Assembly (NCBI GenBank): GCA_963205165.1
Contig: CAUJJX010000030.1
Coordinates: forward strand, 878-64,877
DNA length: 64,000 nucleotides
Direction of reading: 5' to 3'
Source of the DNA: Pseudomonadota bacterium
Lineage (GTDB): Bacteria > Pseudomonadota > Gammaproteobacteria > Burkholderiales > Ga0077523
Position numbers and translations under genes: made by a program. The notes beneath the pieces are model-generated. The model was not told the origin of the DNA, searched no databases, and saw only the letters and a program-made list of their open reading frames with translations. This document shows, piece by piece, positions 3,625 to 20,767 of this stretch (position 1 is its first letter; each line of letters begins with the position of its first letter).

Positions 3625-4150
3625 GGGCCGTGGTTCATGAAGGTCTCGCGGCGTGTGCCCGGCGCGCGTCCTTGCGCGGAGCGGGCGGGTGGACGAGGGC
3701 CATCCGTGCGGCCTTCCATTTAGCAATTCGCGCACCGTCGGGCGACGCGCACGTCGATGTCGTCGCGATGCCCGGCGGGACATGGTCCGGTGTCGGATCG
3801 TTGCCGTCCGCCGCATCGGTCGACGACGTGTCGGCGCGCACTCCGATGGCGCAGCGACCGGGCGGATCGCACCAGGTTCGAGCGTGTCGCTCGCTGCGAG
3901 CGATGGTCGATCCGCGGTCGAATGTTGCGGCCGAGGTCCCCTTCCGGGTTCTGGTGCGGGCGCAGAAAACCACTGCTGGCAAAGGACAAACCGGAAAAAA
4001 GCGGGTCGCTCGATCTCGCCATCGAGACGCCGGAAGTCTCCGTCGGAAGGCGTCAGGCCCGCCGTTTGCAAACACGATCGTCGTGGTCGTCGCACCGTGC
4101 ACATGAACGTGCCGCGACGACGACGGCATCACCCAGGATTTCCGCATCCC

Positions 4151-4225: not shown

Positions 4226-4320
4226 GGCGTCCGGCGGGTGGGCGTTCGCAGTCCGTGCGCAGCAGGCAGGCCAGTGCAACTTCGATCAACGACTTCGGAA
4301 GGGGAACAGCCGTGAGCAAC

Positions 4321-5502
4321 ATGAGCAGGCGAAATTTCATCAGGAATTCGGGTCTCGTCGCCGCCGCGAGCGCGGTGTCGTTCCCGATGCTGAACATCCG
4401 CTCGGCCGGCGCGGCCGAGACCGTGAAGGTCGGGATCCTCCATTCGCTGACGGGCACGATCGCCATCGCCGAGAAATCGGTCGTCGATGCGGAGATGCTC
4501 GCCATCGAGGAGATCAACAAGGCCGGCGGCGTGATGGGCATGCGCATCGAGCCCGTCATCGAGGACGGTGCGAGCGACTGGCCGACCTTCGCCGAGAAGG
4601 CACGCAAGCTCCTCGAACGCGACAAGGTGGCCGCCGTGATGGGCTGCTACACGTCCGCGTCGCGGAAGGCCGTGCTGCCGGTGTTCGAGAAGCTGAAGGG
4701 CCTGCTCTACTACCCGACGTACTACGAGGGCCTCGAGCAGTCGCCGAACATCATGTACACGGCGCAGGAGGCCACGCAGTCGGTCATCGCCGCGATGGAA
4801 TGGCTCGCGAAGAACAAGGGCAAGTCCTTCTACATGATCGGGTCGGACTACATCTGGCCGCGCACCACGATCAAGATCGCGAAGGCGACGCTCGCCCGTC
4901 TCGGCGGCAAGCTCGTCGGCGAGGGCTACTACCCGCTCGGCCACATCGAGTTCTCGTCCGAGATCAACAAGATCAAGGCCGCGAAGCCCGACGTGATCCT
5001 GAACTGCGTCGTCGGCGGATCGAACGTCGCCTTCTTCAAGCAGCTCGCCGCGGCCGGCATCACCGGCAAGTCGCAGACGATCCTGTCGCTCGCGGTGTCG
5101 GAAGAGGAAGTCTCCGGGATCGGCGCCGACAACACCGTCGGCACGCTCACCTGCATGGGCTACTTCGAGAGCCTGAAGAATCCGGCGAACGACAGGTTCG
5201 TGAAGGCCTTCAAGGCGAAGTACGGCGCGAACCGCGTGACGGGCGACACGCTCGCGTGCGGCTACACGTCGGTCTACCTGTGGAAGCTCGCGGCCGAGAA
5301 GGCGAAGAGCTTCGACGTGGCGAAGGTCGTCGCGGCGTCGTCCGGACTGGAGTTCGACGGACCCGAGGGCAAGGTCAAGTTCCACACGGCGAACCACCAT
5401 CTGTGGAAGCACGCGCGGATCGGCATGTTCAAGCCCGACGGGCAGGTCGACATGATCCACGAGTCGCCGCTCATCGAACCCAACCCCTTCCCGAAGCTGT
5501 AA
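4321..5502 (+). CDS. urtA: Urea/short-chain-amide ABC transporter substrate-binding protein (UrtA/FmdD type)
   Basis: The Tat-like signal is MSRRNFIRNSGLVAAASAVSFPMLNIRSAGA. The mature part (VKVGILHSLTGTIAIAEKSVVDAEMLAIEEINKAGGV, YYPTYYEGLEQSPN, GSDYIWPR) is the UrtA/AmiC-like PBP family. An alternative in-frame GTG at 4312 lies closer to GGAAGGGG. Confidence 0.9.
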   Translation: MSRRNFIRNSGLVAAASAVSFPMLNIRSAGAAETVKVGILHSLTGTIAIAEKSVVDAEMLAIEEINKAGGVMGMRIEPVIEDGASDWPTFAEKARKLLERDKVAAVMGCYTSASRKAVLPVFEKLKGLLYYPTYYEGLEQSPNIMYTAQEATQSVIAAMEWLAKNKGKSFYMIGSDYIWPRTTIKIAKATLARLGGKLVGEGYYPLGHIEFSSEINKIKAAKPDVILNCVVGGSNVAFFKQLAAAGITGKSQTILSLAVSEEEVSGIGADNTVGTLTCMGYFESLKNPANDRFVKAFKAKYGANRVTGDTLACGYTSVYLWKLAAEKAKSFDVAKVVAASSGLEFDGPEGKVKFHTANHHLWKHARIGMFKPDGQVDMIHESPLIEPNPFPKL

Positions 5503-5653
5503 TCACCCGCGCCGCACGCCGCGTCGTGCCGCCGTCGCGAGGTCGTGCCTCGTGGCGGCGGTCGGTGCGCGGGGCGCCCGCGACCACCGCACCAAGAACC
5601 CGAAACGAACGAGAGCCAGCGATGTTCCAGATGACCGCCGGGAGGACCGCGCC

Positions 5654-6556
5654 GTGACCGTCGACATGTTCGCCATGCAGGCATTCACGGGCCTGTCGAT
5701 CTTCACGATCCTGATGCTGATGGCGCTGGGACTCGCGATCGTCTTCGGGCTGATGGGCGTCATCAACATGGCGCACGGCGAACTGATGGCGATGGGTGCG
5801 TACACGAGCTACGGCACGGCGCTCTTCTTCCAGAAGTTCATGCCCTCGCTGATGGACGCCTACGTCTTCGTCGGCATCGTGCTCGCGTTCATCGTGACGA
5901 GTGTCTTCGGCTTCCTGCTCGAGCGCGGGCTGATCCGCTTCCTGTACCGGCGCCCGCTCGACACGCTGCTCGCGACGTGGGGCCTGTCGCTGATCCTCCA
6001 GCAGGTCTTCCGCCAGTTCATCGACGCGAAGGAAGTCGAGGTGCCGACGGTGTCGTGGCTGAAGGGCGCGTGGCAGGTGACGGAAGGCATCGCGCTGCCG
6101 CTGTCGCGCCTCTTCATCATCGTCCTCGCGATCGTCACGGCGGCCGTCGTCTACATGATCCTGTTCCGGACGCGCGCCGGACTGCGCATCCGGGCGGTCA
6201 CGCAGAACCGCGTGATGGCCGGGGCCGCGGGCATCGACACGGCGCGCGTCGACGCACTTTCGTTCGCGTTCGGCTGCGGCCTCGCCGGCATCGCGGGCAG
6301 CTCGTTCACGATGCTCGCGTCCACCGGCCCGACGACGGGCCAGCAGTACATCGTCGACACCTTCATCGTCGTCGTGTTCGGCGGCGTCGAGAGCCTGCTC
6401 GGCACGATCTCGTCCGCCTTCCTCATCGGGCAGATGCAGTCGTGGTTCGAGTTCGGACTCGGCGGGTCCATGGCCCGCGCCAGCATCCTCGCGCTCGTGA
6501 TCGCGGTCCTGTACTTCCGGCCCAACGGGCTGTTCGCGGCGAAAGTGCGCCGCTGA
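5654..6556 (+). CDS. urtB: Urea ABC transporter permease UrtB
   Basis: This is a multi-TM branched-chain-type permease (LGLAIVFGLMGVINMAHGELMAMGAYT ... NGLFAAKVRR). GTG at 5654 is 7 nt after GGAGGA (5641-5646). An ATG at 5666 is the alternative start. Confidence 0.85.
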   Translation: MTVDMFAMQAFTGLSIFTILMLMALGLAIVFGLMGVINMAHGELMAMGAYTSYGTALFFQKFMPSLMDAYVFVGIVLAFIVTSVFGFLLERGLIRFLYRRPLDTLLATWGLSLILQQVFRQFIDAKEVEVPTVSWLKGAWQVTEGIALPLSRLFIIVLAIVTAAVVYMILFRTRAGLRIRAVTQNRVMAGAAGIDTARVDALSFAFGCGLAGIAGSSFTMLASTGPTTGQQYIVDTFIVVVFGGVESLLGTISSAFLIGQMQSWFEFGLGGSMARASILALVIAVLYFRPNGLFAAKVRR

Positions 6557-6578
6557 CCAACGACCGGGAGCCATCGCC

Positions 6579-7754
6579 ATGCAGACGCACATCGAGTCCT
6601 CCAGCCCGGCCCGCGCGGCCGTCGCCAACGTCGGACGCAGCCGCGGATTCCTCGAGCGCTGGAGCTTCGCGATCCTCGCGGTCCTGCTGCTCGCCGCGCT
6701 GCCGCTGTCGCTCGACGTCTTCCGGCTCGGGCTCGCCGCGAAGTTCCTGTCGCTCGGCTTCTGCGCCGTCGGCATCGTGCTGATCTGGGGCTACGGCGGG
6801 ATCCTGAGCCTGGGGCAGGGCGTGTTCTTCGGCCTCGGCAGCTACATGATGGCCATGTTCCTCAAGCTCGAATCGACGGGTGCGGACAGCTCGGCCCAGG
6901 CGCTGTCGTCGTTCTTCGGATCGAGCCTGCCCGACTTCATGGTGTGGAACAGCATCGAGGCGCTGCCGTGGTGGTGGGAGCCCTTCCACCACGTGTGGTT
7001 CACGCTGCCTGCGATCGTGCTGCTGCCCGCGCTGCTCGCCTTCGTGCTCGCGTACGCCAACTTCCGCAAGCGCGTCGGCGGCGTGTACTTCTCGATCATC
7101 ACGCTGGCGCTGTCGGCGATCCTGTCGATCGTGATCATCGGCCAGCAGGGCGTGACCGGCGGCGTGAACGGCATCAACGATTTCCGGACCTTCCTCGGGG
7201 TCAACCTCGACGAGGACCGCGTGAAGATCGCGATGTACTTCGTCACGTGCGTGCTGCTGCTCGCGTGCGTCGCCGTCGGCCGCTTCCTGCTGCGCAGCCG
7301 GCTCGGCAAGGTGCTCGTCGCGATCCGCGACCGCGAGGACCGCGTGCGCTTCTCGGGCTACGACCCGGCGCTCTTCAAGGCCTTCGTGTTCGCCGTGGCC
7401 GCGATCTTCTCGTCGATCGGCGGTGCGCTCTTCACGATGCAGGTCGGACTCGCGTCGCCGTCGCTCGTCGGCATCGTGCCGTCCGTCGAGATGGTGATCT
7501 ACGCGGCGGTCGGTGGCCGGCTCTCGCTCGTCGGGGCGGTGTACGGCGCCGTGCTCGTCGGCGCCGCGAAGACCTTCTTCTCCGAGAACTTCGTCGAGTA
7601 CTGGATGTACTTCATCGGCGTGCTGTTCGTCGTCGTCGTGATGTTCCTGCCGGACGGGCTCGCCGGACTCATAGCCCGGGTGCGTGCGCGCCGTTCGAAG
7701 GCGCCGACACCGGCGACGGCGCCGCTCGCCACGGCCACGGGAGTCGCGAAATGA
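6579..7754 (+). CDS. urtC: Urea ABC transporter permease UrtC
   Basis: This is a LivM-like permease (IWGYGGILSLGQGVFFGLGSYMMAMFLKLE, GGVNGINDFRTFLG). Its stop overlaps the urtD start (ATGA at 7751-7754). Confidence 0.88.
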   Translation: MQTHIESSSPARAAVANVGRSRGFLERWSFAILAVLLLAALPLSLDVFRLGLAAKFLSLGFCAVGIVLIWGYGGILSLGQGVFFGLGSYMMAMFLKLESTGADSSAQALSSFFGSSLPDFMVWNSIEALPWWWEPFHHVWFTLPAIVLLPALLAFVLAYANFRKRVGGVYFSIITLALSAILSIVIIGQQGVTGGVNGINDFRTFLGVNLDEDRVKIAMYFVTCVLLLACVAVGRFLLRSRLGKVLVAIRDREDRVRFSGYDPALFKAFVFAVAAIFSSIGGALFTMQVGLASPSLVGIVPSVEMVIYAAVGGRLSLVGAVYGAVLVGAAKTFFSENFVEYWMYFIGVLFVVVVMFLPDGLAGLIARVRARRSKAPTPATAPLATATGVAK

Positions 7755-8488
7755 GCGAGCTGATCCTCGCCGTGGAGGACCTCACGGTCTCGTTCGACGG
7801 CTTCAAGGCGGTGGACGGTCTCAACTTCTACGTCGAGAAGGACGAGCTGCGCGTCGTGATCGGACCCAACGGCGCCGGCAAGACGACGCTGCTCGACATG
7901 ATCTGCGGGAAGACGAAGCCGACGGCCGGCACGATCAAGTTCAAGTACCGCGATCTCGCCGAGATGATCGAGTTCCAGATCACGCGGCTCGGCGTGGGCC
8001 GCAAGTTCCAGAACCCCTCGGTCTACGAGGACCTCACGGTCTTCGAGAACCTCGAGATCTCGTATCCGCAGCGGCGCGGGCTGCTCGGGTCGCTGCTGTT
8101 CCGGCGCGACGACGCGCTGCTCGACAAGATCGACGAAGTGGCCGGCCTGATCTTTCTCGACGAGGTGCTGCGCCACAAGGCCGGCCAGCTCTCGCACGGA
8201 CAGAAGCAGTGGCTCGAGATCGGGATGCTGCTCATGCAGGACCCCGAGCTGCTGCTGCTCGACGAGCCCGTCGCCGGCATGAGTGCACGCGAACGCGAGC
8301 AGACGGCGCAGCTCCTGAACGGCATCTCGAAGGGCCGCTCGATCGTCGTGATCGAGCACGACATGGCCTTCGTGAAGCTCATCGCCCACAAGGTCACGGT
8401 GCTGCACCAGGGGAAGCTGCTCGCCGAGGGCAGCATGGACGAGGTGCAGGCCGACGAGCGTGTCCGCGAAGTCTATCTGGGCCACTGA
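7751..8488 (+). CDS. urtD: Urea ABC transporter ATP-binding protein UrtD
   Basis: Walker A is GPNGAGKTT, the signature is LSHGQKQWLEIG and Walker B is LLLLDEP. The start is coupled to the urtC stop. Confidence 0.9.
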   Translation: MSELILAVEDLTVSFDGFKAVDGLNFYVEKDELRVVIGPNGAGKTTLLDMICGKTKPTAGTIKFKYRDLAEMIEFQITRLGVGRKFQNPSVYEDLTVFENLEISYPQRRGLLGSLLFRRDDALLDKIDEVAGLIFLDEVLRHKAGQLSHGQKQWLEIGMLLMQDPELLLLDEPVAGMSAREREQTAQLLNGISKGRSIVVIEHDMAFVKLIAHKVTVLHQGKLLAEGSMDEVQADERVREVYLGH

Positions 8489-8501
8489 GGAAGAGACGAT
8501 C

Positions 8502-9191
8502 GTGCTCCAGGTCAATCAGCTGAATGTCTACTACGGCGAGAGCCACGTGCTGCGCAACGCGTCGTTCTCGGTCGCGAAGGGCGAGACCGTGGCGATCATG
8601 GGTCGCAACGGGATGGGCAAGAGCACGCTGCTGAAGGCGCTCATCGGGATCCTGCCGACGCGCGGCGGCAGCGTGTCGCTCGGCGGGCGCGAACTCACCG
8701 GCACGCCGACGTACACGCGGGTCGCGGCGGGGATGGGCTTCGTGCCGCAGGGCCGGATGATCTTTCCGTACCTCACCGTCGAGGAAAACATCCTGACCGG
8801 CATGGAGAAGGCGGCGGAGAAGACGGTGCCCGCGTACATCTACGAGGTCTTCCCGGTGCTGCTCGAGATGAAGCACCGCCGCGGCGGGAATCTCTCCGGC
8901 GGCCAGCAGCAGCAACTCGCCATCGCCCGCGCGCTCGTGAGCAACCCGGGCGTGCTGGTCCTCGACGAACCGACCGAGGGCATCCAGCCGTCGATCATCA
9001 AGGACATCGCGCGCGCACTGAACACGCTGAAGGCGGAGCGCGGCTTCTCGCTCGTCGTGTCGGAGCAGGTGCTGTCGTTCGCGATGGCCGTCGCCGACCG
9101 CTTCCTGATCATCGAGAAAGGCGAGTTCGTCCACGAGGCGGCGCGGGCCGACGCGGACGAAGGCGTGATCCACGGGTATCTGACGATCTGA
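8502..9191 (+). CDS. urtE: Urea ABC transporter ATP-binding protein UrtE
   Basis: Walker A is GRNGMGKST, the signature is [15 protein letters not shown] and Walker B is VLVLDEP. GTG at 8502 follows GAGGAAGAG (8488-8496). The track start at 8460 overlaps urtD and is less likely. Confidence 0.88.
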
Positions 9192-9234
9192 TGCCCGTGC
9201 CCGATTCAACCAACCCAGCGAGGAGCAGCGAACC

Positions 9235-10275
9235 ATGATGCACGGAGACATTTCCAGCAGCCGGGACACCGTCGGTGTCGCGGTCGTGAACTACACGATG
9301 CCGCGGCTGCACACGAAGGCCGAGGTGATCGCCAACGCGCGGAAGATCGCCGACATGCTGAAGGGCATGAAGCGCGGCCTGCCCGGCATGGACCTCGTGA
9401 TCTTCCCCGAGTACAGCACCCACGGGATCATGTACGACGCGAAGGAGATGTACGACACGGCCGCGTCGGTGCCCGGCGAGGAGACCGAGATCTTCGCCGC
9501 GGCCTGCCGCGAGGCGAAGGTCTGGGGCGTCTTCTCGCTCACCGGCGAGCGGCACGAGGAGCATCCGCACAAGGCGCCGTACAACACGCTGATCCTGATG
9601 AACGACCAGGGCGAGATCGTGCAGAAGTACCGCAAGATCATGCCGTGGGTGCCCATCGAGGGCTGGTATCCGGGCAACTGCACGTACGTGTCCGAGGGCC
9701 CGAAGGGCCTGAAGATCAGCCTGATCATCTGCGACGACGGCAACTACCCGGAGATCTGGCGCGACTGCGCGATGAAGGGCGCCGAGCTGATCGTCCGCTG
9801 CCAGGGCTACATGTATCCCGCGAAGGACCAGCAGGTCGTGATGGCGAAGGCGATGGCGTGGGCGAACAACACGTACGTCGCCGTCGCGAACGCAGCCGGC
9901 TTCGACGGCGTGTACTCGTACTTCGGCCACTCCGCGATCATCGGCTTCGACGGCCGCACGCTCGGCGAATGCGGCGAGGAGGACATGGGCGTGCAGTACG
10001 CGGCGCTCTCGACGAGCCTGATCCGCGACTTCCGCAAGAACGGTCAGTCCGAGAACCACCTCTTCAAGCTCCTCCATCGCGGCTACACCGGAATGATCAA
10101 TTCGCACGAAGGCGACAAGGGGGTGGCCGCCTGCCCGTACGACTTCTACAAGCGATGGATCACGGACCCCGATGCCACGCGCGAGGCCGTCGAGGCGATC
10201 ACGCGCACGACCGTCGGCACGGAGGAATGCCCGATCGACGGCATCCCGAACGGCGCGACGCCGGTGCATCGCTGA
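9235..10275 (+). CDS. amiE: Aliphatic amidase (nitrilase-superfamily acylamide amidohydrolase)
   Basis: It is near-collinear with P. aeruginosa AmiE: [32 protein letters not shown] (catalytic Glu), YRKIMPW (Lys), [17 protein letters not shown] (Cys), and [30 protein letters not shown]. The RBS is GAGGAG. Confidence 0.93.
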
Positions 10276-10345
10276 CCGCACCACGACGACCGGACGGCGG
10301 GTGCGGCACACTCGCCGTCCATCTCGGCAACCGACAGGACACACC

Positions 10346-10795
10346 ATGCTGCGTCTCACCAGGGTGCTCGGCCACGCGACCGATCCGCTGATCGCGGAAT
10401 CCCTGCACCAGCTCGAACACGGCGGCGGCGTCGAGCGCATCCGGCTCTCGCGCGCCGACACCGCCCGCAAGCGGCTGCACGCCTTCACCGACCGCGGCAC
10501 CGAGGTCGGGATCATGCTCGACCGCACCGAGGCGCTCGCGAACGGCGCCGTGCTGTGGCTCGACGACGCCCGCGCGATCGTCGTCGCGCTCGACGAGCCG
10601 CAATGGCTCGGGCTCGCCCCGCGCGATGCCGCCGCCGCGCTGGAGCTCGGCTACTTCTGCGGGAACATGCACTGGAAGGTGCGGTTCGCCGGCGAGTACC
10701 TGCACGTGTCGCTCGAGGGGCCGCGCGACGACTACCTCGTGCGTCTCGCGCATCTCGTGAAATCGGGCGCGATCCGGGTGATCGGCGATGAGTGA
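10346..10795 (+). CDS. ureE: Urease accessory protein UreE (no His-rich tail)
   Basis: The 149-aa product carries LELGYFCGNMHWKVRF, the equivalent of the UreE GNRH metal-site motif. It sits at the head of the ure genes. It ends ...GAIRVIGDE without poly-His. Confidence 0.75.
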   Translation: MLRLTRVLGHATDPLIAESLHQLEHGGGVERIRLSRADTARKRLHAFTDRGTEVGIMLDRTEALANGAVLWLDDARAIVVALDEPQWLGLAPRDAAAALELGYFCGNMHWKVRFAGEYLHVSLEGPRDDYLVRLAHLVKSGAIRVIGDE

Positions 10796-11468
10796 TCTCG
10801 CGCAGACGCTCGCACTGCTGCAGTTCGGCGACAGCTTCTTCCCGAGCGGCGCGACGTCGTTCTCGTGGGGGCTCGAGACGCTGCGGGCCGATGGTCTCGT
10901 CGTGCGCGCATCCGACGTCGAGGCGCTGATCGAGGGGCAGATCCGGCATCGGTGGGCGAGCTTCGACCGGCCCGCGCTGATCGCGTCGTATCGCGCCGCC
11001 GGTGATCTCGATCGCATCGCCGACGTCGATCGCGAGATCGATGCCGCGACGCTCGCCCGCGAGGCACGCGATGGCGGACGCCGCATCGGCAGCGCGCTCC
11101 TGAAGGTGCACGCCGGCATGGGGACGCCGGGCGCCGCCGACTATCGCGAACGCGTGCAGCGCGGCGATGCGTGCGGCCAGATGACGGCGGTGCACGGATT
11201 GATCGGCCACGCGACGGGCCTCGACGAGACGGCGGTGTGCGCGCTGTCGGCCTACGGACTCGCCGTCGGCACCATCGGCGCCGCGCTGCGCGTCGGACTG
11301 CTCGGTCACGTCGAGGGGCAGGCGATCCTCGCGCGGATGCGTGCGGTCGTCGACGAGGCCGTCGCGTCGCCGCTGCCCGCCGTCGACGCCTGCCACGCAT
11401 ACACGCCCATGGCCGAGATCGCGATGATGCGACACGAGACCGGCAGCGGCCGGATGTTCGCGAGCTGA
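10788..11468 (+). CDS. ureF: Urease accessory protein UreF
   Basis: [21 protein letters not shown] is the characteristic UreF N-terminal motif. It overlaps ureE by 8 nt. Confidence 0.85.
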
Positions 11469-11490
11469 CGCCACCACCAGGACACCGACC

Positions 11491-12186
11491 ATGCTGCTGA
11501 CCCCGACCGAACTGGAACGCCTCACGATCTACACGGCCGCCGAGCTGGCGCGGAAGCGTCGCGCGAAGGGGCTGAAGCTGAATCATCCGGAGACCGTCGC
11601 GTTCATCGCCGACGAGATCCTGGAGGGCGCGCGCGAAGGCCGCTCGGTCGCCGACCTCATCGGGTGGGGCGCGACGCTGCTGACCACAGACGACGTCATG
11701 CCGGGCGTCGCTGCGATGCTGCCGATCCTGCAGGTCGAGGGCACGTTCCCCGACGGCACGAAGCTCGTGACCGTGCACGATCCGGTGCGGCCCGGCCGCG
11801 TCGCCGTCGCACCCGGCCCGACGCCCGGCGAGATCCTGCCGGCCGACGGCGACATCGAGATCAACGCGGGCCGCCGCCGGCACACGCTGCGTGCGCGCAA
11901 CACCGGCGACCGGCCCATCCAGATCGGCAGCCATTACCACTTCTTCGAGGCGAACCGCGCGCTCGACTTCGATCGCGGCGCGGCCTTCGGCATGCACCTC
12001 GACATTCCCGCCGGGACCGCCGTGCGCTTCGAGCCCGGCGAGGAGAAGGAAGTGACGCTCGCGGCCTTCGGCGGCACGGGCGAGATCGTCGGGCTGAACG
12101 CGCTGACGAACGGCACGACGCATGGCGAGGACGCCCGGGATGCAGCACTCGCCCGCGCGCGGGAACGTGGATTCCGGGGCGCATGA
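11491..12186 (+). CDS. ureAB: Urease gamma-beta fusion subunit (UreAB)
   Basis: The N-terminal ~100 aa are the gamma subunit ([39 protein letters not shown] ... [11 protein letters not shown]). The C-terminal part is the beta subunit ([43 protein letters not shown] ... [16 protein letters not shown]). It is one continuous 231-aa ORF. Confidence 0.9.
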
Positions 12187-12216
12187 GCGGCCCGGTCCTT
12201 TGAGGAGTCGACGTCG

Positions 12217-13929
12217 ATGGCGAAGTTGTCGAGAAGGGAATACGCGCAGCTCTACGGCCCGACCACCGGAGACGGCATCCGGCTGGGCGACACCGAGCTG
12301 ATCGCCGAGGTCGAGTTCGACCACGCCGTGCCGGGCGACGAATGTCTGCACGGCGGCGGCAAGACGCTGCGTGACGGCCTCGGGCTCGTCGCCGGGTACG
12401 ACAGCGCCGACGGCGCGCTCGACATGCTGATCTCGAACGTCGTCGTGATCGATCCGGTCGTCGGCATCGTGAAGGGCGACATCGGCATCAAGGACGGCCG
12501 CATCGTCGCGATCGGCAAGGCGGGCAACCCGGCGATCATGGACGGCGTGCACCCGAAGCTCATCTGCGGCGCGGCGACGACCGTCCGCGACGGCGAGGGG
12601 ATGATCGCCACGCCGGGCGGCATCGACGTGCACGTGCACTTCGATTCGGCGCAGCTCGTGGAGCACGCGATCTCGTCCGGTCTCACGACGATGATCGGCG
12701 GATCGCTCGGTCCGATCACGGTCGGGATCGACTGCGGCGGCGCGTGGAACGTCGCGCGGATGCTGCAGGCGGCGGAGCAGTGGCCGATGAATTTCGGCTT
12801 CCTCGGACGCGGCAATTCGTCGAAGCCGAAGTCGCTGCTCGACCAGATCAGCGGCGGCTGCCTCGGACTGAAGATCCACGAGGACTGGGGCGCGATGCCC
12901 GCCGCGATCGACACGTGTCTCTCGGTCGCCGACGAACTCGACTTCCAGGTGCAGCTCCACACCGACACGCTGAACGAATCCGGCTTCCTGGAGGACACGC
13001 TCGCCGCCATCGGCGACCGGACGATCCACATGTATCACACGGAAGGTGCGGGCGGCGGGCACGCGCCGGACATCATCGCCGTCGCGGGCAAGTACAACTG
13101 CCTGCCGTCGTCGACGAACCCGACCAACCCGTACACCGTGAACACGTTCGACGAGCACCTCGACATGATCATGGTGTGCCACCACCTCAACCCGTCCGTG
13201 CCCGAGGACGTCGCGTTCGCCGAGAGCCGCATCCGCGCGCAGACGATCGCCGCCGAGGATGTCCTGCACGACATGGGCGCGATCTCGATGCTCGGGTCCG
13301 ACAGCCAGGGCATGGGCCGCATCCACGAGGTGATCTGCCGCACGTGGCAGCTCGCGTCGAAGATGAAGCAGCAGCGCGGCCGGCTGCCGGAGGAGAAGAC
13401 GCGCACCGGCGACAACGAGCGCATCCGCCGCTACATCGCGAAGTACACGATCAACGCGGCGCGCACCTTCGGCATCGACGCGCACGTGGGTTCGCTCGAG
13501 CCGGGCAAGCTCGCGGACATCGTGCTGTGGCGCCCGGCCTTCTTCGGCATCAAGCCCGAGCTGGTCGTGAAGGGCGGCTTCATCGCGTGGGGCGCGATGG
13601 GCGATTCGGCGGCGTCGCTCATGACGTGCGAGCCGATCCTGCTGCGTCCGCAGTGGGGCGCGTTCGGTGCCGCGAAGCAGCCGCTCTCGGCGTGCTTCGT
13701 GAACCCCGCCGCGATCGCCGCCGACCTCGCCGGCACGCTCGGCCTCACGAAGCCGCTGCTCCCCTCTCGCGGGACGCGGCGGCTGAACAAGTCGCACATG
13801 CTCCACAATGACGCCTGCCCGAACATCACGGTGAACGCGCAGACCTTCGACGTGATGATCGACGGCCGCGTCATCGGCTGCGAGCCCGCGAAGGTGGTGC
13901 CGCTCGCACAGAGGTACATGCTGCGATGA
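12217..13929 (+). CDS. ureC: Urease alpha (catalytic) subunit
   Basis: All nickel-site motifs are present: [18 protein letters not shown] (carbamylated Lys), [29 protein letters not shown] and GSDSQGMGR. Confidence 0.95.
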
Positions 13930-13991
13930 CCGCGTTCCCGGAGTCCTGACGCTCCCCGACCCATTTTCGATCCGAACCCGAACGCATCACG

Positions 13992-14645
13992 ATGAACACC
14001 GTCACCGACCAGTCTTCCGCCACCGCCGTCCGCCCGTCCACCGCCGCCCGTGTCGGCATCGGTGGCCCCGTCGGCAGCGGCAAGACCGCGCTGCTCGAAC
14101 AGCTGATCCCGCGGTTCGCCGCGCGCGGCACCAACCTCGCCGTCATCACGAACGACATCGCGACCAGGGAGGACGCCGAGCGCGTCCGCCGCAGCGGGTT
14201 GATCGCGCCGGAACGCGTGCTCGCCGTCGAGACGGGGGCGTGCCCACATTCCGCGATCCGCGAGGACCCGACACTCAATATGGAATCGGCCGACGCGCTC
14301 GACCGGAAGTTTTCCGGGCTCGAGCTGATCCTGATCGAGTCGGGCGGCGACAACCTCGCGTCGTCGTTCTCGCTCGACCTCGTCGACTACTGGCTGTTCG
14401 TGATCGACGTGGCCGGCGGCGACGACATCCCCCGCAAGCGTGGCCTCGGCGTGCTGTCGTGCGACCTGCTCGTGATCAACAAGACCGATCTCGCGCCGTA
14501 CGTCCGCGTCGACCTGCCGCGCATGGTCCGCGAGGCGAACGAGGTCAGGCGTGGCAAGTCCGTGCTGCTCACGAACTGCGCAACGGGCGAGGGCGTCGAC
14601 GCGATCGTCGAGACCATCGCGCGCGAGGTGCTGTTTGACCGGTGA
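13992..14645 (+). CDS. ureG: Urease accessory GTPase UreG
   Basis: The P-loop is [11 protein letters not shown]. Other UreG motifs present are [20 protein letters not shown] and INKTDLAP. Confidence 0.93.
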
Positions 14646-15495
14646 CCGCATCCTGCCGGACGACCTCGACGCCGTGCCGCGCCAGGTCGCGCTCGCCTTC
14701 CGGCGCGATCCGTCCGGCCGCACGTACCTGCTGCGGCAGCACGCGGCGTATCCGTTCCACGTGGGTCGCGCGCTGTACCTGCCGGGCGATCCCGGGGGGT
14801 TCTGCACGACGTACCTCCAGTCGTGCTCGGGCGGCATCTTCCAGCGCGACCGGCTCGGCATCGCGGTGCACGCGGAAGCCGGCGCGGGTGTCCACGTCAC
14901 GACGTCCGCGTCGACGGTCGTGCACTCGATGGAGGACGGCGACGCCGCGCAGTCGATCGTGCTGGACGCAGGCGAGGATGCCGTCCTCGAGTACCTGCCC
15001 GATCCGCAGATCCTCTTTCCGCGCAGCCGCCTGGCGAACCGCCTCGTGATCCGCGCGCATCCGTCGGCGACGGTCGTCGCGTGCGACAGCTTCCTGCCGC
15101 ACGATCCCGCCGCGGCGGGCGAGCCCTTCGACTGGCTGAGGTCCGACACGCGCGTCGAGGACGAATCCGGCGCGCTGCTCGCGGCCGACCGCTTCGCCGT
15201 CACGGGCGCGGATGCCATGGCGGCACGCGTCGGCATCCACGGCGCGTACCGGATGCAGGCGACGCTGCTCGTCGTCCATCGGCGCGATCCGGACGCGATG
15301 CTCGCGGTCCTGCGCGGCGTGCTGCCCGATGGCGATACGGTCTACGCCGGCGCGTCGCTGCTGCCGAACGGCGCGGGCGCGTGGCTGCGGGCGTTGTCGA
15401 GCGATGCGGTCGCGCTGCGCGCGACGCTCCGCGATGCGTGGGCAGCGGTGCGGTCCGCGACGACGGGCCACGCGCCGGGCCCCCGCAGGAAATGA
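14635..15495 (+). CDS. ureD: Urease accessory protein UreD/UreH
   Basis: It has a UreD-like core ([38 protein letters not shown] ... [12 protein letters not shown]). The start is uncertain. TTG at 14635 (an 11-nt overlap with ureG) is proposed; the alternative is the track ATG at 14551. Confidence 0.75.
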
Positions 15496-15544
15496 ACATG
15501 ACCGTCGCGCATCGAGCGCGATGCAGCTTCGGAGAACCGGATCG

Positions 15545-16375
15545 ATGAGTCACATGCACGAACCCGCGCGCGCCCCGGCCGTGATCGACCAGTACCGCAT
15601 CACGCAGGAGCCCTACTACCGGGCCGTCGGCGACGAGGTCGCGCTGTACGAGGCGGCGTATGCCGCGCGGCTGCCGATGATGCTCAAGGGACCGACGGGC
15701 TGCGGCAAGACGCGCTTCATCGAGTACATGGCGTGGAAGCTCGGGCGCCCGCTCGTGACGCTCGCGTGCAACGAGGACATGACCGCGTCGGATCTCGTCG
15801 GTCGCTGGCTGCTCGACGCCGAGGGCACGCGCTGGCAGGACGGTCCGCTGACGCTCGCGGCGCGGTACGGCGGCATCTGCTACCTCGACGAGGTGGTCGA
15901 GGCCCGGCAGGACACCGCCGTCGTGATCCATCCGCTGACCGATTCGCGGCGCTGCCTGCCGCTCGAGAAGAAGAACGAACTGGTCGAGGCGCATCCCGAC
16001 TTCCAGCTCGTGATCTCGTACAACCCGGGCTACCAGAGCATCCTCAAGGACCTCAAGCAGTCCACGAAGCAGCGCTTCGGCGCGCTCGATTTCCATTACC
16101 CCGAGCACGACATCGAGACCGAGATCGTCGCGCACGAGAGCGGCGTCGATGCCGCCGTCGCGGCGAAGCTCGTGTCGATCGGCGAGAAGACCCGCAACCT
16201 CAAGGGCCACGGGCTGGACGAAGGCGTGTCGACGCGCATGCTGATCCACGCGGGTCACCTGATCGCGCGGGGCATCGAACCGGTGGCGGCGTGCCGCGTG
16301 ACGCTGGTGCGTCCGATCACGGACGACCCGGACATGCGCGATGCGCTGGATGCGGTGGTGACGACGTTCTTCTGA
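15545..16375 (+). CDS. MoxR-class AAA+ ATPase, CbbQ/NirQ/NorQ/GpvN family
   Basis: Walker A is [12 protein letters not shown] and Walker B is [10 protein letters not shown]. The family-typical stretches [15 protein letters not shown] and KQSTKQRF are present. ATG at 15545 follows GGAGAA. It lies 49 nt after ureD. Confidence 0.88.
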
Positions 16376-16483
16376 GCGCGCGATGATCGAGGCAGTCCCG
16401 ATGCGAGGACGAACGGACGTCCGCGTGGTCGCGGCGAATGCGCGCGACGACCACGGGTGCGTGGCTCGCGGACCACGGCGCCG

Positions 16484-18211
16484 ATGAACGACCTCGCGCA
16501 GTTCGTCGACGCCCGCCGCCGGCTCGGCTTCTACCTGCGCGCCCTCTGGGACGACGGCCGCGACCTGCGCGGGTTTCCCGCGACGCCGCGCCAGGATCGT
16601 CCGTTCGTCACGCCGCTCGGGATCCATCTGCCCGACACCGTGCGTGTCGCGCGCGGCGAAGCCGGTGACGCGCTCTACCGTGCGGCCGTCGCCCACGCGG
16701 CGGCCCATCTCGCGTTCTCCGCCGCGCCGCAGCCGCGCGCCGGATTGAAGCCTGTCCAGATCGCGCTGGTCGGGCTCCTGGAGGACGCCCGCGTCGAACT
16801 CCTCGCGATCCGCGAACTGCCGGGGCTGCGGCGACTCTGGTCGCGATTCCACGAGGCGCAGGCCGGTGGCGTCGTGACGTTCGAGGCGCTCGCTGCGCGG
16901 CTCGCCCGGACGCTGCTCGATCCGGCGCATCACGACGACGATCCGTGGGTCGCGAAAGGGCGGCGGCTGTTCACGGATGCGTCGGTCGATCTCGCCGATG
17001 CGTCGTTCGTGCGGCCGCTCGCCTCGCTGCTCGGCAACGACATCGGGCAGATGCGCCTGCCGTTCAACGTGAAGACCTACGTCGTCGAACCCGCGTATCG
17101 CGACGACAACAGCGTGCTGTGGCAGCCCGATCCGGACACGCCCGACGAGGCTCTGATGCTCGAGGAGGAAGTGCTCGTCGTGCGGCCCGAGATCGTCGAG
17201 GTCGACGGTGGCGAGATCCTCGAGGACCCCGGTGCGCCCGAGACCGAAGGCGTGAAGCCCGTCGGCGGCGGCGAGCCTGACCACGACGACGCGACAGCCG
17301 ATGCCGAAGCGTGGCTGCGGCTCTTCAGGTATCCCGAGTGGGATCACCTGATCGGCGCGCTGCGCCCGCAGTGGTGCACGGTCCAGGAGCGTCGCGCGGA
17401 CCTCGGCGATCCGACGCGCATCGACGACATCCTCCATCGACATCGCGACCTGCTCCAGCGCATCGACGCGCTGATCCGCGGCAGCGAGCTGCGCAAGCCG
17501 GTGCGGCTGCGCAGGCAGATGGACGGCGATCACTTCGATCTCGACGCCGTCGTGAACGCGATGCTCGATCTGCGTTCCGGACGCACGCCGGACCCGCGGC
17601 TGCACGTGCGCGTCGACCGGCGCGAGCGCGACCTGTCGGTGCTCGTGCTGCTCGATCTGTCGGAATCGACGAACGACATCGTCCGGGCGTGCGGCCAGTC
17701 GGTGAATGCGCTCGCGTGCGAGGCGACGGTGCTGCTCTCGTCCGCGATGGAACGCATCGGCGACCGCTTCGCGATCGACGGCTTCTGCTCGAACGGCCGC
17801 GGCGAGGTGCGCTACCTGCGCTTCAAGGAGTTCGGCGAGGGGTTCGACGAGGTCGCGAAGGCACGGCTCGCAGGCATGACCGGCCAGTTGTCCACGCGGA
17901 TGGGCGCGGCGCTGCGCCACGCGACGCGCCGGTTGCGCGCCGAGGCGTGCGACAAGCGGCTGATCCTGGTGATCACCGACGGCGAGCCGAGCGACATCGA
18001 CGTCCACGATCCGAAGTACCTGCACGCCGACACGCGCAAGGCCGTCGAGGAGGCGACGCGCGCCGGCGTCTACACGTACTGCATGAGCCTCGACCCGAAG
18101 GCCGACGCGTACGTGAGCCGCATCTTCGGCGCGCGGAACTACACGGTGATGGACCGCATCGACCGGCTGCCGGAGAAGCTGCCGGGGTTGTATCTGCGGC
18201 TGACGCGGTAG
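16484..18211 (+). CDS. NorD/CbbO-like protein with C-terminal von Willebrand factor A domain
   Basis: The C-terminal VWA domain has the MIDAS motif LLDLSES and ILVITDGEPSDID. Length (~575 aa) and pairing with a NorQ-type ATPase fit NorD/CbbO. The start is either ATG at 16484 or GTG at 16457, and neither has a good RBS. Confidence 0.8.
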   Translation: MNDLAQFVDARRRLGFYLRALWDDGRDLRGFPATPRQDRPFVTPLGIHLPDTVRVARGEAGDALYRAAVAHAAAHLAFSAAPQPRAGLKPVQIALVGLLEDARVELLAIRELPGLRRLWSRFHEAQAGGVVTFEALAARLARTLLDPAHHDDDPWVAKGRRLFTDASVDLADASFVRPLASLLGNDIGQMRLPFNVKTYVVEPAYRDDNSVLWQPDPDTPDEALMLEEEVLVVRPEIVEVDGGEILEDPGAPETEGVKPVGGGEPDHDDATADAEAWLRLFRYPEWDHLIGALRPQWCTVQERRADLGDPTRIDDILHRHRDLLQRIDALIRGSELRKPVRLRRQMDGDHFDLDAVVNAMLDLRSGRTPDPRLHVRVDRRERDLSVLVLLDLSESTNDIVRACGQSVNALACEATVLLSSAMERIGDRFAIDGFCSNGRGEVRYLRFKEFGEGFDEVAKARLAGMTGQLSTRMGAALRHATRRLRAEACDKRLILVITDGEPSDIDVHDPKYLHADTRKAVEEATRAGVYTYCMSLDPKADAYVSRIFGARNYTVMDRIDRLPEKLPGLYLRLTR

Positions 18212-18307
18212 GGGATACGCGCGGAGATTGTGCGAACGATGGCGTCGGATTGCGCGGCTGCGAGCTGATCCGACACGACCTATCCAACGCAGTCGGCGAT
18301 CGGGCAT

Positions 18308-18431
18308 CCCTCGCCCGCTCGCGGGAGAGGGAACGAGGGAGAGGGCGCGGAGGTCTTGCGACCGACACCGATCATCGACGCGACGGCTTGCCCTCTCCCC
18401 CGGCCCCTCTCCCGCGGGCGGGCGAGGGGAG
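18308..18431. repeat. Inverted pair of ~40-nt REP-like palindromic elements (CCCTCNCCCGC hairpins)
   Basis: Element 1 is CCCTCGCCCGC-TC-GCGGGAGAGGG followed by AACGAGGGAGAGGG (18308-18347). Element 2 is GCCCTCTCCCCCGGC followed by CCCTCTCCCGC-GG-GCGGGCGAGGG (18390-18431). Element 2 is essentially the reverse complement of element 1. Each folds as an 11-bp hairpin with one central mismatch. Confidence 0.6.
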
Positions 18432-18629
18432 AGAAACGCGACGCGCCGGTGGACGCGGAGCAGGGCATCAACACGGGTGGCTCGGGTTTCGTGGGTGGAA
18501 CAGCGGCATCGCCGCTACCTGCCTTGACACACCCCCGGACGCCTTCCAGAGTCCGGACACCATGCCGACCCCCGCACCGATTCCCTCGCAGCGAATGTGC
18601 GTCACCGCGATCCGCGGGGCATCGTTCCG

Positions 18630-19781
18630 ATGATCGACGCACTCGCCCCCGCCACCATCCCCGCGACCGACGAGGCCTTGCGCCACGAGGTCCGCGCGTT
18701 CCTGCGCGAGCACCTGCGGGATCGTCCGCTCGAGGCGCGCGCGCGATCGTGGATGGGCTTCGATGCCGAGTTCAGTCGTGCCCTCGCGGCGCGCGGCTGG
18801 GTCGGACTCACGCTGCCCGTCGAGTACGGCGGCGGCGGACGCAGCCCGTTCGCGCGCTTCGTGCTCATCGAGGAACTCCTCGCGGCCGGTGCGCCCGTCG
18901 GTGCGCACTGGATTGCCGATCGCCAGAGCGGTCCGCTGCTGCTGAAGTACGGCACCGAGGCGCAGAAGCGCTTCCACCTGCCGCGCATCTGTCGTGCGGA
19001 GTCGTTCTTCTGCATCGGCATGAGCGAGCCGCAGTCGGGGTCCGATCTCGCGAGCGTCCGGACACGCGCCGAACGCGACGGCGACGGCTGGCGGCTGTCG
19101 GGGCAGAAGCTCTGGACGACGCACGCGCCGCGGAGCCATTTCATGATCGCGCTCGTGCGCACGTCCGGCACGCCGGACGACCGGCAGCGCGGGCTGTCGC
19201 AGGTGATCGTCGATCTCGCGGCGCCGGGCGTGACGATCCGGCCGATCCTCGATCTCGCGGGCGATGCGCATTTCTCGGAAGTGTTCTTCGACGACGTGCA
19301 GCTCGGGCCGGATGCGATCGTCGGGCAGGAGGGCGAGGGCTGGGCGCAGGTGACGGCCGAACTCGCGTTCGAGCGCAGCGGGCCGGAGCGCATCTATTCG
19401 AGCCTCGTGCTGTTCGACGCGTGGCTCGATCATCTGCGCGCCGTGCCGTTTCCGGACGAATCGTCGATCGCGCTCGCGGGCCGCATCGCGAGCCATCTCG
19501 CCGTGCTGCGCGCCATGTCGCTCGCGGTGACGGCGAAGCTCGTCGCGGGCGAGAGCCCGGTCGTCGAGGCCGCACTCGTGAAGGACCTCGGCACGACGCT
19601 CGAACAGTTCATCCCGACGGCCGTCGCCGACGTGCTCGGCGCCCACCCGGACCGCGAGATCGATCCGTCGCTGCTGCGCGCGCTCGCGTACGTGACGCAC
19701 GTGGCGCCGTCGTTCTCGCTGCGCGGCGGCACGCGGGAGATCCTGCGCGGCATGATCGCCCGGGGGCTGGGGCTGCGATGA
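18630..19781 (+). CDS. Acyl-CoA dehydrogenase family protein (large subunit of a two-gene ACAD pair)
   Basis: ACAD hallmarks are present: FFCIGMSEPQSGSDLASVRTRAERDGDGWRLSGQKLWTT and GEGWAQVTAELAFERSG. ATG at 18630 (MIDALAP...) is preferred over the track start at 18597. Confidence 0.85.
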   Translation: MIDALAPATIPATDEALRHEVRAFLREHLRDRPLEARARSWMGFDAEFSRALAARGWVGLTLPVEYGGGGRSPFARFVLIEELLAAGAPVGAHWIADRQSGPLLLKYGTEAQKRFHLPRICRAESFFCIGMSEPQSGSDLASVRTRAERDGDGWRLSGQKLWTTHAPRSHFMIALVRTSGTPDDRQRGLSQVIVDLAAPGVTIRPILDLAGDAHFSEVFFDDVQLGPDAIVGQEGEGWAQVTAELAFERSGPERIYSSLVLFDAWLDHLRAVPFPDESSIALAGRIASHLAVLRAMSLAVTAKLVAGESPVVEAALVKDLGTTLEQFIPTAVADVLGAHPDREIDPSLLRALAYVTHVAPSFSLRGGTREILRGMIARGLGLR

Positions 19782-20767
19782 GCGCGGATCCGTTTCTCCA
19801 CGCGATGGAGCGCCTGCTGGCGCACTACTGCACGCCGTCGTTCGTGCGCTCGGTCGAGGGCGGCGGCGCGGTCGCCGTGCTGCGCGACGAGGTGGCGGGC
19901 TCCGGCTTCGCCGATCTCCTCGTGCCGGAATCACGCGGGGGCGGCGGTCTCTCGCGGGCGGACGTCGGTCCGGTCCTGTTCGCGTGTGCCCGTCACCTGC
20001 TGCCGCTGCCGCTCGACGCGACGATGATGGTGCGCGCCGTGAATGCGTCGACGCCCGAAGGCTTCGTCGCGATCGCGCCGCACGCGACGATTCTGGAAGA
20101 CGGGGCGATCGAGTGCCGTGGCGTGCCGGATGCTGCGACCGCCGACTGGGTCCTCGCGGCGTTCGAGCAGGAGGCCGTGCTGCTGCCGGTGGTCGCGGCG
20201 GAATCGCGCTCGCCGCTGGCCGGCGGTCCGATCGTCGCGGACCTGCGCTGGCGTTCGCTGCCTCGCGCGGCGGTGGGTGTTCCGGGGAATCACGACTGGT
20301 TCGCGGCGGGGGCGATGCTGATGGCTGCTCGGATCGCCGGCGCGATGGACCACGTGCTCGCGGTCACGCTCGCGCACGCCGCCGACCGCCGGCAGTTCGG
20401 CAAGCCGCTCGCGCAGTTCCAGGCGATCCAGCAGCAGCTCGCGGTGATGGCGGAGGAGGTCGCGGCCGCGCGCATGGCGGCGTCGCTGGGATTCGGCGGT
20501 GAAGGCATGTTGCCCGACGCGCTGCAGGCCGCCGTCGCAAAGGCACGCACCTCGGAGGCCGTGCCGTCGGTCGCGTCGATCGCCCACGCGGTGCACGGTG
20601 CGATCGGCATCGCGGCCGAGTTCGATCTGCAACTGTTCACGCGGCGGCTGCACGCATGGCGGCTCGCGTTCGGGTCCGAGGGTCACTGGCACGGCCGGAT
20701 CGGGCGGATGCTGCTGGCCGACGGCGCGCCGGTGCTCGATGCGGTGGTGCGGCGGGTGGTCCGGTAG
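19778..20767 (+). CDS. Acyl-CoA dehydrogenase-like protein (second, shorter subunit)
   Basis: The C-terminal ACAD helical domain is present (RQFGKPLAQFQAIQQQLAVMAEEVAAARMA ... HAVHGAIGIAAEFDLQLFTRRL). The ATG overlaps the upstream stop (ATGA at 19778-19781). The upstream 470 codons of the 803-aa track ORF are spurious. Confidence 0.75.
   Translation: MSADPFLHAMERLLAHYCTPSFVRSVEGGGAVAVLRDEVAGSGFADLLVPESRGGGGLSRADVGPVLFACARHLLPLPLDATMMVRAVNASTPEGFVAIAPHATILEDGAIECRGVPDAATADWVLAAFEQEAVLLPVVAAESRSPLAGGPIVADLRWRSLPRAAVGVPGNHDWFAAGAMLMAARIAGAMDHVLAVTLAHAADRRQFGKPLAQFQAIQQQLAVMAEEVAAARMAASLGFGGEGMLPDALQAAVAKARTSEAVPSVASIAHAVHGAIGIAAEFDLQLFTRRLHAWRLAFGSEGHWHGRIGRMLLADGAPVLDAVVRRVVR

Follow-up and report, generated by a model that had tools for sequence, protein, structure and literature searches.

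The CbbQ/CbbO pair is a Rubisco activase (Acidithiobacillus ferrooxidans CbbQ2O2 and Halothiobacillus CsoCbbQ; PDB entries 6l1q and 5c3c). NorQ/NorD, the iron-inserting chaperone of cytochrome c nitric oxide (NO) reductase (cNOR; 9qh4-9qhg), likewise consists of a MoxR-type AAA+ ring and a partner with a von Willebrand factor A (VWA) domain, a finger and a C-terminal anchor; the C-terminal tail anchors NorD to NorQ (PMC13036017). In the amide-utilization operon amiEBCRS of Pseudomonas aeruginosa, a different AAA+ gene, amiB, lies beside the aliphatic amidase gene amiE, and AmiB was described as a putative chaperone (PMC12591593). On plasmid pYu-LOS15-16 of Pseudomonas veronii, amiE-amiC-amiR are followed by CbbQ-like and NorD-like genes; the authors proposed that these take part in assembling or activating the aliphatic amidase, and they pointed to homologous operons in Burkholderiales (PMC13209695, May 2026). 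We analyzed a 64,000-nucleotide (nt) stretch of contig CAUJJX010000030.1 from a Pseudomonadota bacterium (Burkholderiales, lineage Ga0077523), here called the window, in which a cbbQ-like and a cbbO-like gene directly follow a urease cluster. To our knowledge, work on CbbQO has to date dealt only with the repair of Rubisco, and work on NorQD only with metal insertion. The initial annotation of the window, made from the sequence alone, had considered the pair as a helper of urease. Our analysis indicates that it is very probably a component of an amidase operon rather than a urease accessory.

To define the conserved partner of the pair, gene neighborhoods were surveyed for the best 80 of 559 CbbO relatives, with one genome per species and scoring by tblastn with the window proteins; 67 loci were assessable. 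The amiE gene stood directly before cbbQ, with no ure gene between them, in 40 of the 67 loci, and the encoded amidase was 81-90% identical to that of the window. Only two of these 40 loci had urease elsewhere within 10 kb. The genes ureG-ureD directly preceded cbbQ in 23 loci, which fall into three separate beta-proteobacterial clades, and amiE was at the head in all 18 urease-containing loci with enough DNA. No locus had ure genes and cbbQO without amiE. Neither amiE nor ure preceded cbbQ in the other four loci (upstream was a WYL regulator, a patatin or a rearranged gene). Clustering of open reading frames (ORFs) across the surveyed loci revealed as recurrent families only cbbO, cbbQ, amiE, the Urt-type transporter, AmiR/AmiC-like regulators and urease (21 loci). 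Downstream of cbbO nothing was conserved except an occasional acetyl-CoA synthetase, aquaporin-like or amidase-signature gene. In 90 related loci, neither cbbL/S nor norB/C was detected within 10 kb. The order amidase-ureE-F-AB-C-G-D-cbbQ-cbbO was common to six metagenomic loci (CbbO 54-99% identical to that of the window), each time with different downstream genes. From these six neighborhoods, the first to be looked at, urease was assumed to be the conserved partner; the scan with one genome per species overturned this assumption.

Plasmids served as natural controls. Aminobacter aminovorans pAA01 carries genes for an AmiC-like protein, an ANTAR protein and a binding protein together with urtBCDE and ureEF(AB)CGD, and Methylobacterium radiotolerans pMRAD01 carries the same fused-UreAB urease type. 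Both lack amiE, and both lack cbbQO. Thus, the pair follows amiE, not urease. Rhizobium etli pRsp8C3a shows the order ANTAR, binding protein, urtBCDE, aliphatic amidase, CbbQ, VWA, acs. When matched by coordinates, about 28 of 66 amiE-bearing plasmids had CbbO beside amiE, and at least 76 genomes at species level, besides about 28 plasmids, contained the branch. Cultured carriers include Rhizobium etli 8C-3 (pRsp8C3a), Azospirillum argentinense, Azospirillum brasilense, Roseibium aggregatum, Noviherbaspirillum suwonense DSM 26001 and Ancylobacter polymorphus ZM13, which has amiE, urease and cbbQO all together. In this Burkholderiales lineage, the urease cluster has the look of an insert into an amiE-cbbQO operon; since it lies between amiE and cbbQ, the pair looks appended to urease. 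The link to urease, which the initial annotation had called purely positional, is more than positional in a single genome, as the 23 loci show, but urease as the client is not supported; amiE heads every urease-containing locus that could be judged. That annotation had proposed co-occurrence statistics with ure genes; a co-occurrence with urease independent of other genes was not found in the survey or on the two plasmids. The same 23 loci speak against orthologs sitting always beside nor, cbb or cox genes and never beside ure genes.

The first protein of the pair is a CbbQ-type ATPase. The initial annotation had recognized a MoxR-class ATPase with the motifs GPTGCGKT and YLDEVVEA, encoded 49 nt past the end of ureD, and a pair of NorQ/CbbQ and NorD/CbbO type; coordinates, motifs and Pfam matches (AAA_5, 2e-32; CbbQ_C, 2e-34) agree. 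Among solved relatives, CsoCbbQ (5c3c, 474 bits) and AfCbbQ2 (6l1q, 416 bits) were nearer than NorQ (298 and 293 bits). Hundreds of CbbQ proteins in the database are 82-87% identical to the window ATPase, among them Rubisco-linked ones of Acidithiobacillus and Nitrosomonas (82% for the latter). Walker A, Walker B and the helix-2 insert GRxLLxxxxT are present, and each of their residues is kept in at least 93% of 73 relatives, save three variable positions (one in Walker B and two in the insert). The motor motifs, including the sensor and arginine-finger regions, are intact and at least 90% conserved among the 73 relatives save a few variable positions. NCBIfam has no model for CbbO, and its CbbQ model matched only below threshold. 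Third-position GC content was 0.87-0.89 for both cbbQ and cbbO; both are therefore real genes in this 69% GC genome.

The most likely start of cbbO is the ATG at 16484, which gives a protein of 575 amino acids (aa), as long as a database protein (P0001) with 99% identity; translation might instead begin at a GTG at 16457. [quoted passage not shown] In the MIDAS motif DLSES...T...D(GEP), the D-x-S-x-S, T and D residues are invariant among the compared relatives, and the C-terminal motif LPEKLPxLYxxLTR is largely conserved. The protein aligned over its full length with CbbO-type proteins of 764-766 aa (54-71% identity), minus their first ~190 residues. In contrast, the alignment with true NorD was restricted to the VWA half, with ~31-36% identity. 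On these similarities, we classify the pair as a CbbQO-type MoxR AAA+/VWA machine, not as NorQD.

Full-length CbbO proteins have about 740-790 aa with an N-terminal extension of ~190 residues, which is present in all four Rubisco-linked references and in most amidase-linked relatives. The spacer between cbbQ and cbbO in the window is only 108 nt, so the extension is truly absent. Short CbbO proteins of 562-595 aa, with cbbQ-cbbO spacers below 350 nt that are too small for the missing part, were found in at least six lineages (the window's clade with L012 and L045, and the related metagenomic L004; L015; L048; L075 and L050; L082; L089; L064). Within the window's own clade, the short proteins are ~70% identical over their whole length. 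Since the loss is recurrent and the short genes are intact, the extension seems dispensable in the amidase/urease-linked branch. An imperfect 20-nt inverted repeat (75% complementary) was noticed at 16417-16462 in the cbbQ-cbbO spacer, just 5' of the cbbO start, where the N-terminal coding region was lost.

An AlphaFold2 model of the window CbbO (mean pLDDT 73) comprised a folded N-domain (residues 1-220), then a disordered linker (220-276), a finger modeled at low confidence (337-382) and the VWA domain. Its best fold matches were NorD VWA domains, such as 9qh6_G, and the top 50 PDB matches all aligned to the VWA part only, leaving no informative match for the N-domain among them. According to this model, CbbO retains the N-domain, linker and VWA layout reported for NorD, which is of similar length (631-646 aa). 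With its motor and MIDAS motifs intact and with a fold that matches the NorD VWA domain including the finger, the machine seems functional. The N-domain contains an H-x3-H...E-D-x3-E motif (H72, H76, E101, D102 and E106; approximately nt 16694-16798) that was invariant in 78 of 78 CbbO proteins, the Rubisco-linked ones included. It looks like a possible metal-binding site, and we know of no description of it. The CbbO residue numbers of this motif and of the signature positions below are those of the 576-codon translation of 16481-18208; 1 has to be subtracted for the protein starting at 16484.

Compared with the Rubisco activase, both subunits belong to the same protein family. The CbbQ motor is ~80% identical, Walker A and Walker B are identical, and the helix-2 insert and sensor regions differ at one or two residues. 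CbbO shares the MIDAS site and the N-domain motif just described, its C-terminal tail is closely similar, and the gene order, cbbQ then cbbO directly 3' of the presumed client genes, is also the same. In contrast, no Rubisco or carboxysome gene is located near the window pair, the conserved neighbor is amiE, and the ~190-residue extension of CbbO is missing. In addition, seven CbbO positions, G185, N186 and D187 (in LGNDxGQM), Q194, P204, P340 and R573, reach at least 90% conservation in the amidase-only as well as the urease-containing group and are absent from the four Rubisco-linked CbbO proteins. The amidase-only and urease-containing groups themselves showed just five conservative differences, and CbbO proteins of loci without the urease insert (L026, L034) were 86-92% identical to their nearest urease-containing relatives. 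These sequences therefore give no sign that the adaptor was retargeted in urease-containing lineages.

Pairwise identity to the window CbbO was 43-44% for gamma-proteobacterial amidase-linked and for Rubisco-linked proteins alike. Because it failed to separate the two, neighbor-joining trees were built for CbbQ, CbbO and the concatenated proteins (79 taxa, 100 bootstraps), with Sinorhizobium meliloti NorQD as the outgroup. NorQD was set apart on a long branch (bootstrap 100). The window clade (14 loci, bootstrap 100) contained 13 loci with the urease cluster directly before cbbQ and one that was not assessable. In an alpha/gamma-proteobacterial clade (35 loci, bootstrap 96) all loci were amidase-adjacent, and in a beta-proteobacterial clade (19 loci, bootstrap 99) loci with and without the urease insert were interleaved. 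The four Rubisco-linked references were monophyletic (bootstrap 100). In these trees, the amidase/urease-linked proteins appear as full members of the CbbQO family, interleaved with Rubisco activases.

The window AmiE matched the NCBIfam equivalog NF009802 with 721 bits (cut-off 427), and it scored 661 bits with the Geobacillus pallidus amidase (2plq) and 632 bits with P. aeruginosa AmiE (2uxy). It has the residues E59, K134, E142 and C166. Like a described aliphatic amidase operon, the locus thus has an AmiE equivalog that keeps the catalytic residues, together with regulators of AmiC/AmiR type and, after amiE, an AAA+ gene; this AAA+ gene is of CbbQ type, not AmiB type, and 5.2 kb of urease genes lie between amiE and cbbQ. 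The residues N148, V139, C149 and K307 and the C-terminal ...HR (...ATPVHR in the window) are conserved in 59 cbbQO-linked AmiE proteins. Each occurs in at most one of eight unlinked proteins, three of them alphaproteobacterial, and N148 in none of the eight; D, G or E occupies position 148 in nine proteins outside the linked set. Residues 139-149 flank the catalytic Glu142. These signature residues are candidate contact or handle sites for a remodeler, and they offer modest evidence for the pairing, as the unlinked sample is small.

A second type of ATPase was found beside amiE. ClpB-D2-like AAA+ ATPases are encoded directly after amiE in Klebsiella quasipneumoniae and on Halomonas plasmids, and beside amiE in Rhodococcus qingshengii; their mutual identity is 43-57%. 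Like AmiB of P. aeruginosa, they occupy the slot of cbbQ in an amide-utilization operon, but they belong to another AAA+ clade (AAA_2 and ClpB_D2-small), lack a VWA partner and have only the P-loop in common with CbbQ. Beyond the AAA+ fold, the likeness is one of analogy, not homology. That two unrelated AAA+ families share the slot beside amiE is the best indirect reason to think that the ATPase works on AmiE or on something that cannot be separated from it.

Reasoning by analogy with the known machines, we estimate with a probability of roughly 0.55 that AmiE is the client and that the pair acts on it as a remodeler or activase. A CbbQ hexamer would carry one CbbO, anchored by its C-terminus and VWA finger as in CbbQO and NorQD. 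The MIDAS site and N-domain of CbbO would hold the AmiE hexamer, and ATP hydrolysis in CbbQ would drive a rotation or pulling that twists or pulls AmiE open. Such remodeling could clear the buried Cys166 site of a dead-end ligand or adduct, or aid hexamer maturation, and amidase activity would be restored. A stable carbamoyl or acyl thioester formed from urea or other poor substrates, or an oxidized thiol, are candidates for the dead-end species at Cys166. Slow inactivation of P. aeruginosa amidase by urea was reportedly seen in enzymology of the 1970s; we give this little weight, and our literature searches on urea inhibition of amidase found nothing to confirm it. If correct, it would explain the repeated recruitment of urease into the operon. 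More tentatively, the pair might be the first CbbQO with a client that is neither Rubisco nor a metallocenter protein, an "amidase activase" that pries the AmiE hexamer open and clears dead-end species from Cys166; urease might then have been recruited in some lineages to destroy an inhibitor, and AmiB-type ATPases might be an independent solution.

Several points weigh against AmiE as the client. AmiE of P. aeruginosa and of G. pallidus, produced in Escherichia coli, is active with no such partner present; folding therefore cannot require the pair. Several amiE genes have no AAA+ neighbor at all. Unlike Rubisco, the proposed client is a cysteine hydrolase, and it has neither a metal center nor a carbamylated lysine, so that a chemical parallel with Rubisco or cNOR is not obvious. 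In four related loci, cbbQO occurs with no amiE within 10 kb. The AmiE signature was derived by comparison with just eight unlinked sequences, and ancestry may explain part of it. Finally, the Rubisco-linked clade nests among urease-containing beta-proteobacterial clades, with a bootstrap of 89 for one sister pairing and a weak backbone (7-60). The amidase-linked group is therefore not cleanly monophyletic, and we make no claim on the ancestral association.

A urease helper, which would act as a remodeler on inhibited or decarbamylated urease or, together with UreDEFG, open the apo-enzyme for delivery of nickel, is an unlikely alternative. It would fit the position of cbbQ, 49 nt past ureD on the same strand with no promoter-like site between them, and its recurrence after ureG-ureD in three clades. 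Plasmids of Ancylobacter and Shinella also keep the same urease type within a few kb of cbbQO, and the sister pairing with bootstrap 89 joins Rubisco-linked CbbQO to a urease-containing subclade. Moreover, urease and Rubisco have a carbamylated lysine in common. Against this, urease as the client does not fit the 40 loci in which cbbQO adjoins amiE without a ure gene between, nor the occurrence of the same urease without cbbQO where amiE is absent. The near identity of CbbO with and without the insert provides no urease-specific signature, and the position of urease relative to cbbQO varies (L047, L090, Ancylobacter, Shinella). On Ancylobacter polymorphus pB, for example, amiE-ureEF(AB)CGD are followed by cbbO-cbbQ on the opposite strand. 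Literature searches found no description of a link between urease and CbbQ, NorQ or NorD, in line with the initial remark that no urease role of such a pair was known.

Quite unlikely, too, is a broader service to the operon, in which the pair would have two clients (AmiE, and urease where present) or would act on an AmiC-AmiR complex or the Urt-type transporter. AmiC/AmiR-like genes and the transporter co-occur with the pair in many loci, and the module repeatedly has urease clusters of a single type nearby, in several arrangements. However, pAA01 has regulators, transporter and urease without amiE and without cbbQO, whereas Klebsiella and Methylobacterium currus have urtABCDE with amiE and lack cbbQO; moreover, the immediate neighbor in the 40 loci is amiE.

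That the pair is a decaying remnant, as the loss of ~190 N-terminal residues might suggest, is very improbable. The window CbbO is indeed shorter than its relatives of 764-786 aa, and a genuinely degraded copy exists beside amiE on an Acidithiobacillus caldus megaplasmid. However, the reading frames in the window are unbroken and coding-like in composition, conservation extends to every catalytic and MIDAS motif, and the N-domain, linker and VWA layout is retained; the short forms in at least six lineages, with ~70% identity over the full length in the window's clade, indicate continued selection. An ordinary Rubisco activase or NO reductase chaperone with its client gene elsewhere in the genome is hardly credible despite the 82% identity of the motor to Rubisco-linked CbbQ and the JGI annotation of relatives as "nitric oxide reductase NorQ/NorD," given that cbbL/S and norB/C are missing from the window and, within 10 kb, from 90 related loci whereas true Rubisco- and nor-linked pairs adjoin their clients, that NorQD is set apart in the trees and NorD aligns over its VWA half only, that CbbO differs from Rubisco-linked CbbO at the seven signature positions, and that the carriers include plasmids of Rhizobium, Brucella, Shinella and Azospirillum species not known to us as autotrophs.

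We conclude that the pair is no urease accessory and that it is not a stray NorQD or Rubisco activase either, and we return to AmiE as the probable client. The CbbQO papers found in our searches did not mention amidases. The association with amiE is barely known: compared with the window, pYu-LOS15-16 shows the same gene association without a urease insert, in a single-plasmid account that read the proteins as NorQ/NorD-like, not CbbQ/CbbO-like, and contained no survey, phylogeny or experiment on the pair (PMC13209695, a passing mention). The breadth of the association, the family placement and the natural controls are new here. If AmiE is the client, this widespread sister lineage, linked in heterotrophs to a cysteine amidase, would demonstrate other clients for the CbbQO machine type, and it would offer a tractable soluble client for mechanistic work. 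It might also explain the role of AmiB in the classic Pseudomonas ami operon, which is poorly described in the literature. The name "nitric oxide reductase NorQ/NorD" on many of these genes looks wrong. Aliphatic amidases serve as biocatalysts in industry, where a dedicated reactivator could be of practical use.

In the window (69% GC), real genes were picked by third-position GC and then confirmed by profile searches. Fourteen genes, urtABCDE-amiE-ureEF(AB)CGD-cbbQ-cbbO, follow each other without interruption on the same (+) strand, as assigned with Pfam, NCBIfam and tblastn (Table 1). In UreC, the motif LKIHEDWG with the carbamylated lysine can be aligned with Klebsiella aerogenes urease, as can the nickel ligands. 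From urtA to cbbO, with the ATG at 16484 as its start, all intergenic gaps are at most 108 nt. The amiR-like and amiC-like genes are located upstream and are divergent from this unit, so the whole unit is probably controlled by amide-responsive antitermination. Two hairpins in the 385-nt spacer 3' of cbbO likely mark the operon end. Consensus scans of 9000-19000 detected no promoter-like site and no terminator-like site on the + strand, although such scans are uninformative at the 69% GC of the genome. The initial annotation had listed norCB, cbbLS, cox and cobN as missing from the window: for norB/C and cbbL/S this was borne out by tblastn, whereas cox and cobN were checked only through Pfam searches of the ten largest remaining ORFs, which yielded housekeeping and signaling genes only.

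Table 1. Features of the amide-utilization locus (window coordinates) and, in the last row, ATPase genes at amiE loci of other bacteria (coordinates of the respective locus)
Feature	Position	Strand	Basis or remark
amiR-like antiterminator	~1845-2430	-	Pfam AmiR_N and ANTAR; tblastn with Aminobacter plasmid genes; start approximate
amiC-like binding-protein regulator	~2464-3650	-	Pfam Peripla_BP_5; tblastn with Aminobacter plasmid genes; start approximate
Urt-type (urea/short-amide) ABC transporter	4312-9191	+	NCBIfam UrtA/B/C/E equivalogs; tblastn with Rhizobium etli plasmid genes
Urt-type binding protein	~4312-5502	+	
urtB	5552-6556	+	
urtC	6579-7754	+	
urtD	7751-8488	+	
urtE	~8502-9191	+	
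amiE, aliphatic amidase, 346 aa (proposed client; heads urease cluster)	9235-10275	+	NCBIfam equivalog NF009802
ureE	10346-10795	+	Pfam/NCBIfam; urease-cluster starts from tblastn
ureF	10788-11468	+	Pfam/NCBIfam
Fused ureAB	11491-12186	+	Pfam/NCBIfam
ureC	12217-13929	+	Pfam/NCBIfam
ureG	13992-14645	+	Pfam/NCBIfam
ureD	14635-15495	+	Pfam/NCBIfam
cbbQ-like MoxR AAA+ ATPase, 276 aa (ATG start)	15545-16375	+	Pfam AAA_5 and CbbQ_C
cbbO-like VWA/MIDAS partner, short form, 575 aa	16484-18211	+	Pfam VWA
Two GC-rich hairpins, 12-bp stems	18307-18429	+	Inverted repeats 18307-18332 and 18404-18429 in the spacer 3' of cbbO
AmiB-type ATPases next to amiE	L106 6090-7142; L107 6086-7078; L101 3808-4875		Klebsiella, Halomonas and Rhodococcus plasmids; RefSeq name "AAA family ATPase"

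The two hairpins 3' of cbbO are similar palindromes with 2-nt loops, TCCCTCGCCCGC/GCGGGAGAGGGA and CCCCTCTCCCGC/GCGGGCGAGGGG; one possibility is REP-like elements, another a terminator that lacks a T-run. The genes further downstream are unrelated to the operon and encode a split acyl-CoA dehydrogenase, a TetR regulator and a PAS-GGDEF-EAL protein. The acyl-CoA dehydrogenase gene (18597-20767) is apparently split into an N/M-domain ORF and a separate C-domain ORF, as was seen in a 99%-identical contig (L001). At the left edge of the locus, a gene for a PEP-CTERM protein is located at 313-1791.

Some of the related loci were rearranged. On a Roseateles plasmid (L096), genes for a cytosine permease and an alpha/beta hydrolase lie between amiE and cbbQ, and in one lineage of metagenome-assembled genomes (L003, L020) an NmrA-family gene on the opposite strand separates cbbQ from a short cbbO. 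The junctions around cbbQ seem prone to insertions. In Azospirillum oryzae A2P (L086, 8546-11710), a single ORF of 1054 aa with a VWA domain is preceded only by a cbbQ-similar fragment, with no amiE within 10 kb; it is possibly a fusion or rearrangement. The megaplasmid of A. caldus ATCC 51756 (L100, 6001-8931) carries amiE followed by cbbO split into two ORFs; cbbQ is missing, and IS elements lie on either side. Here the amiE-cbbQO module is in decay, in an autotroph that also has a Rubisco-type CbbQO.

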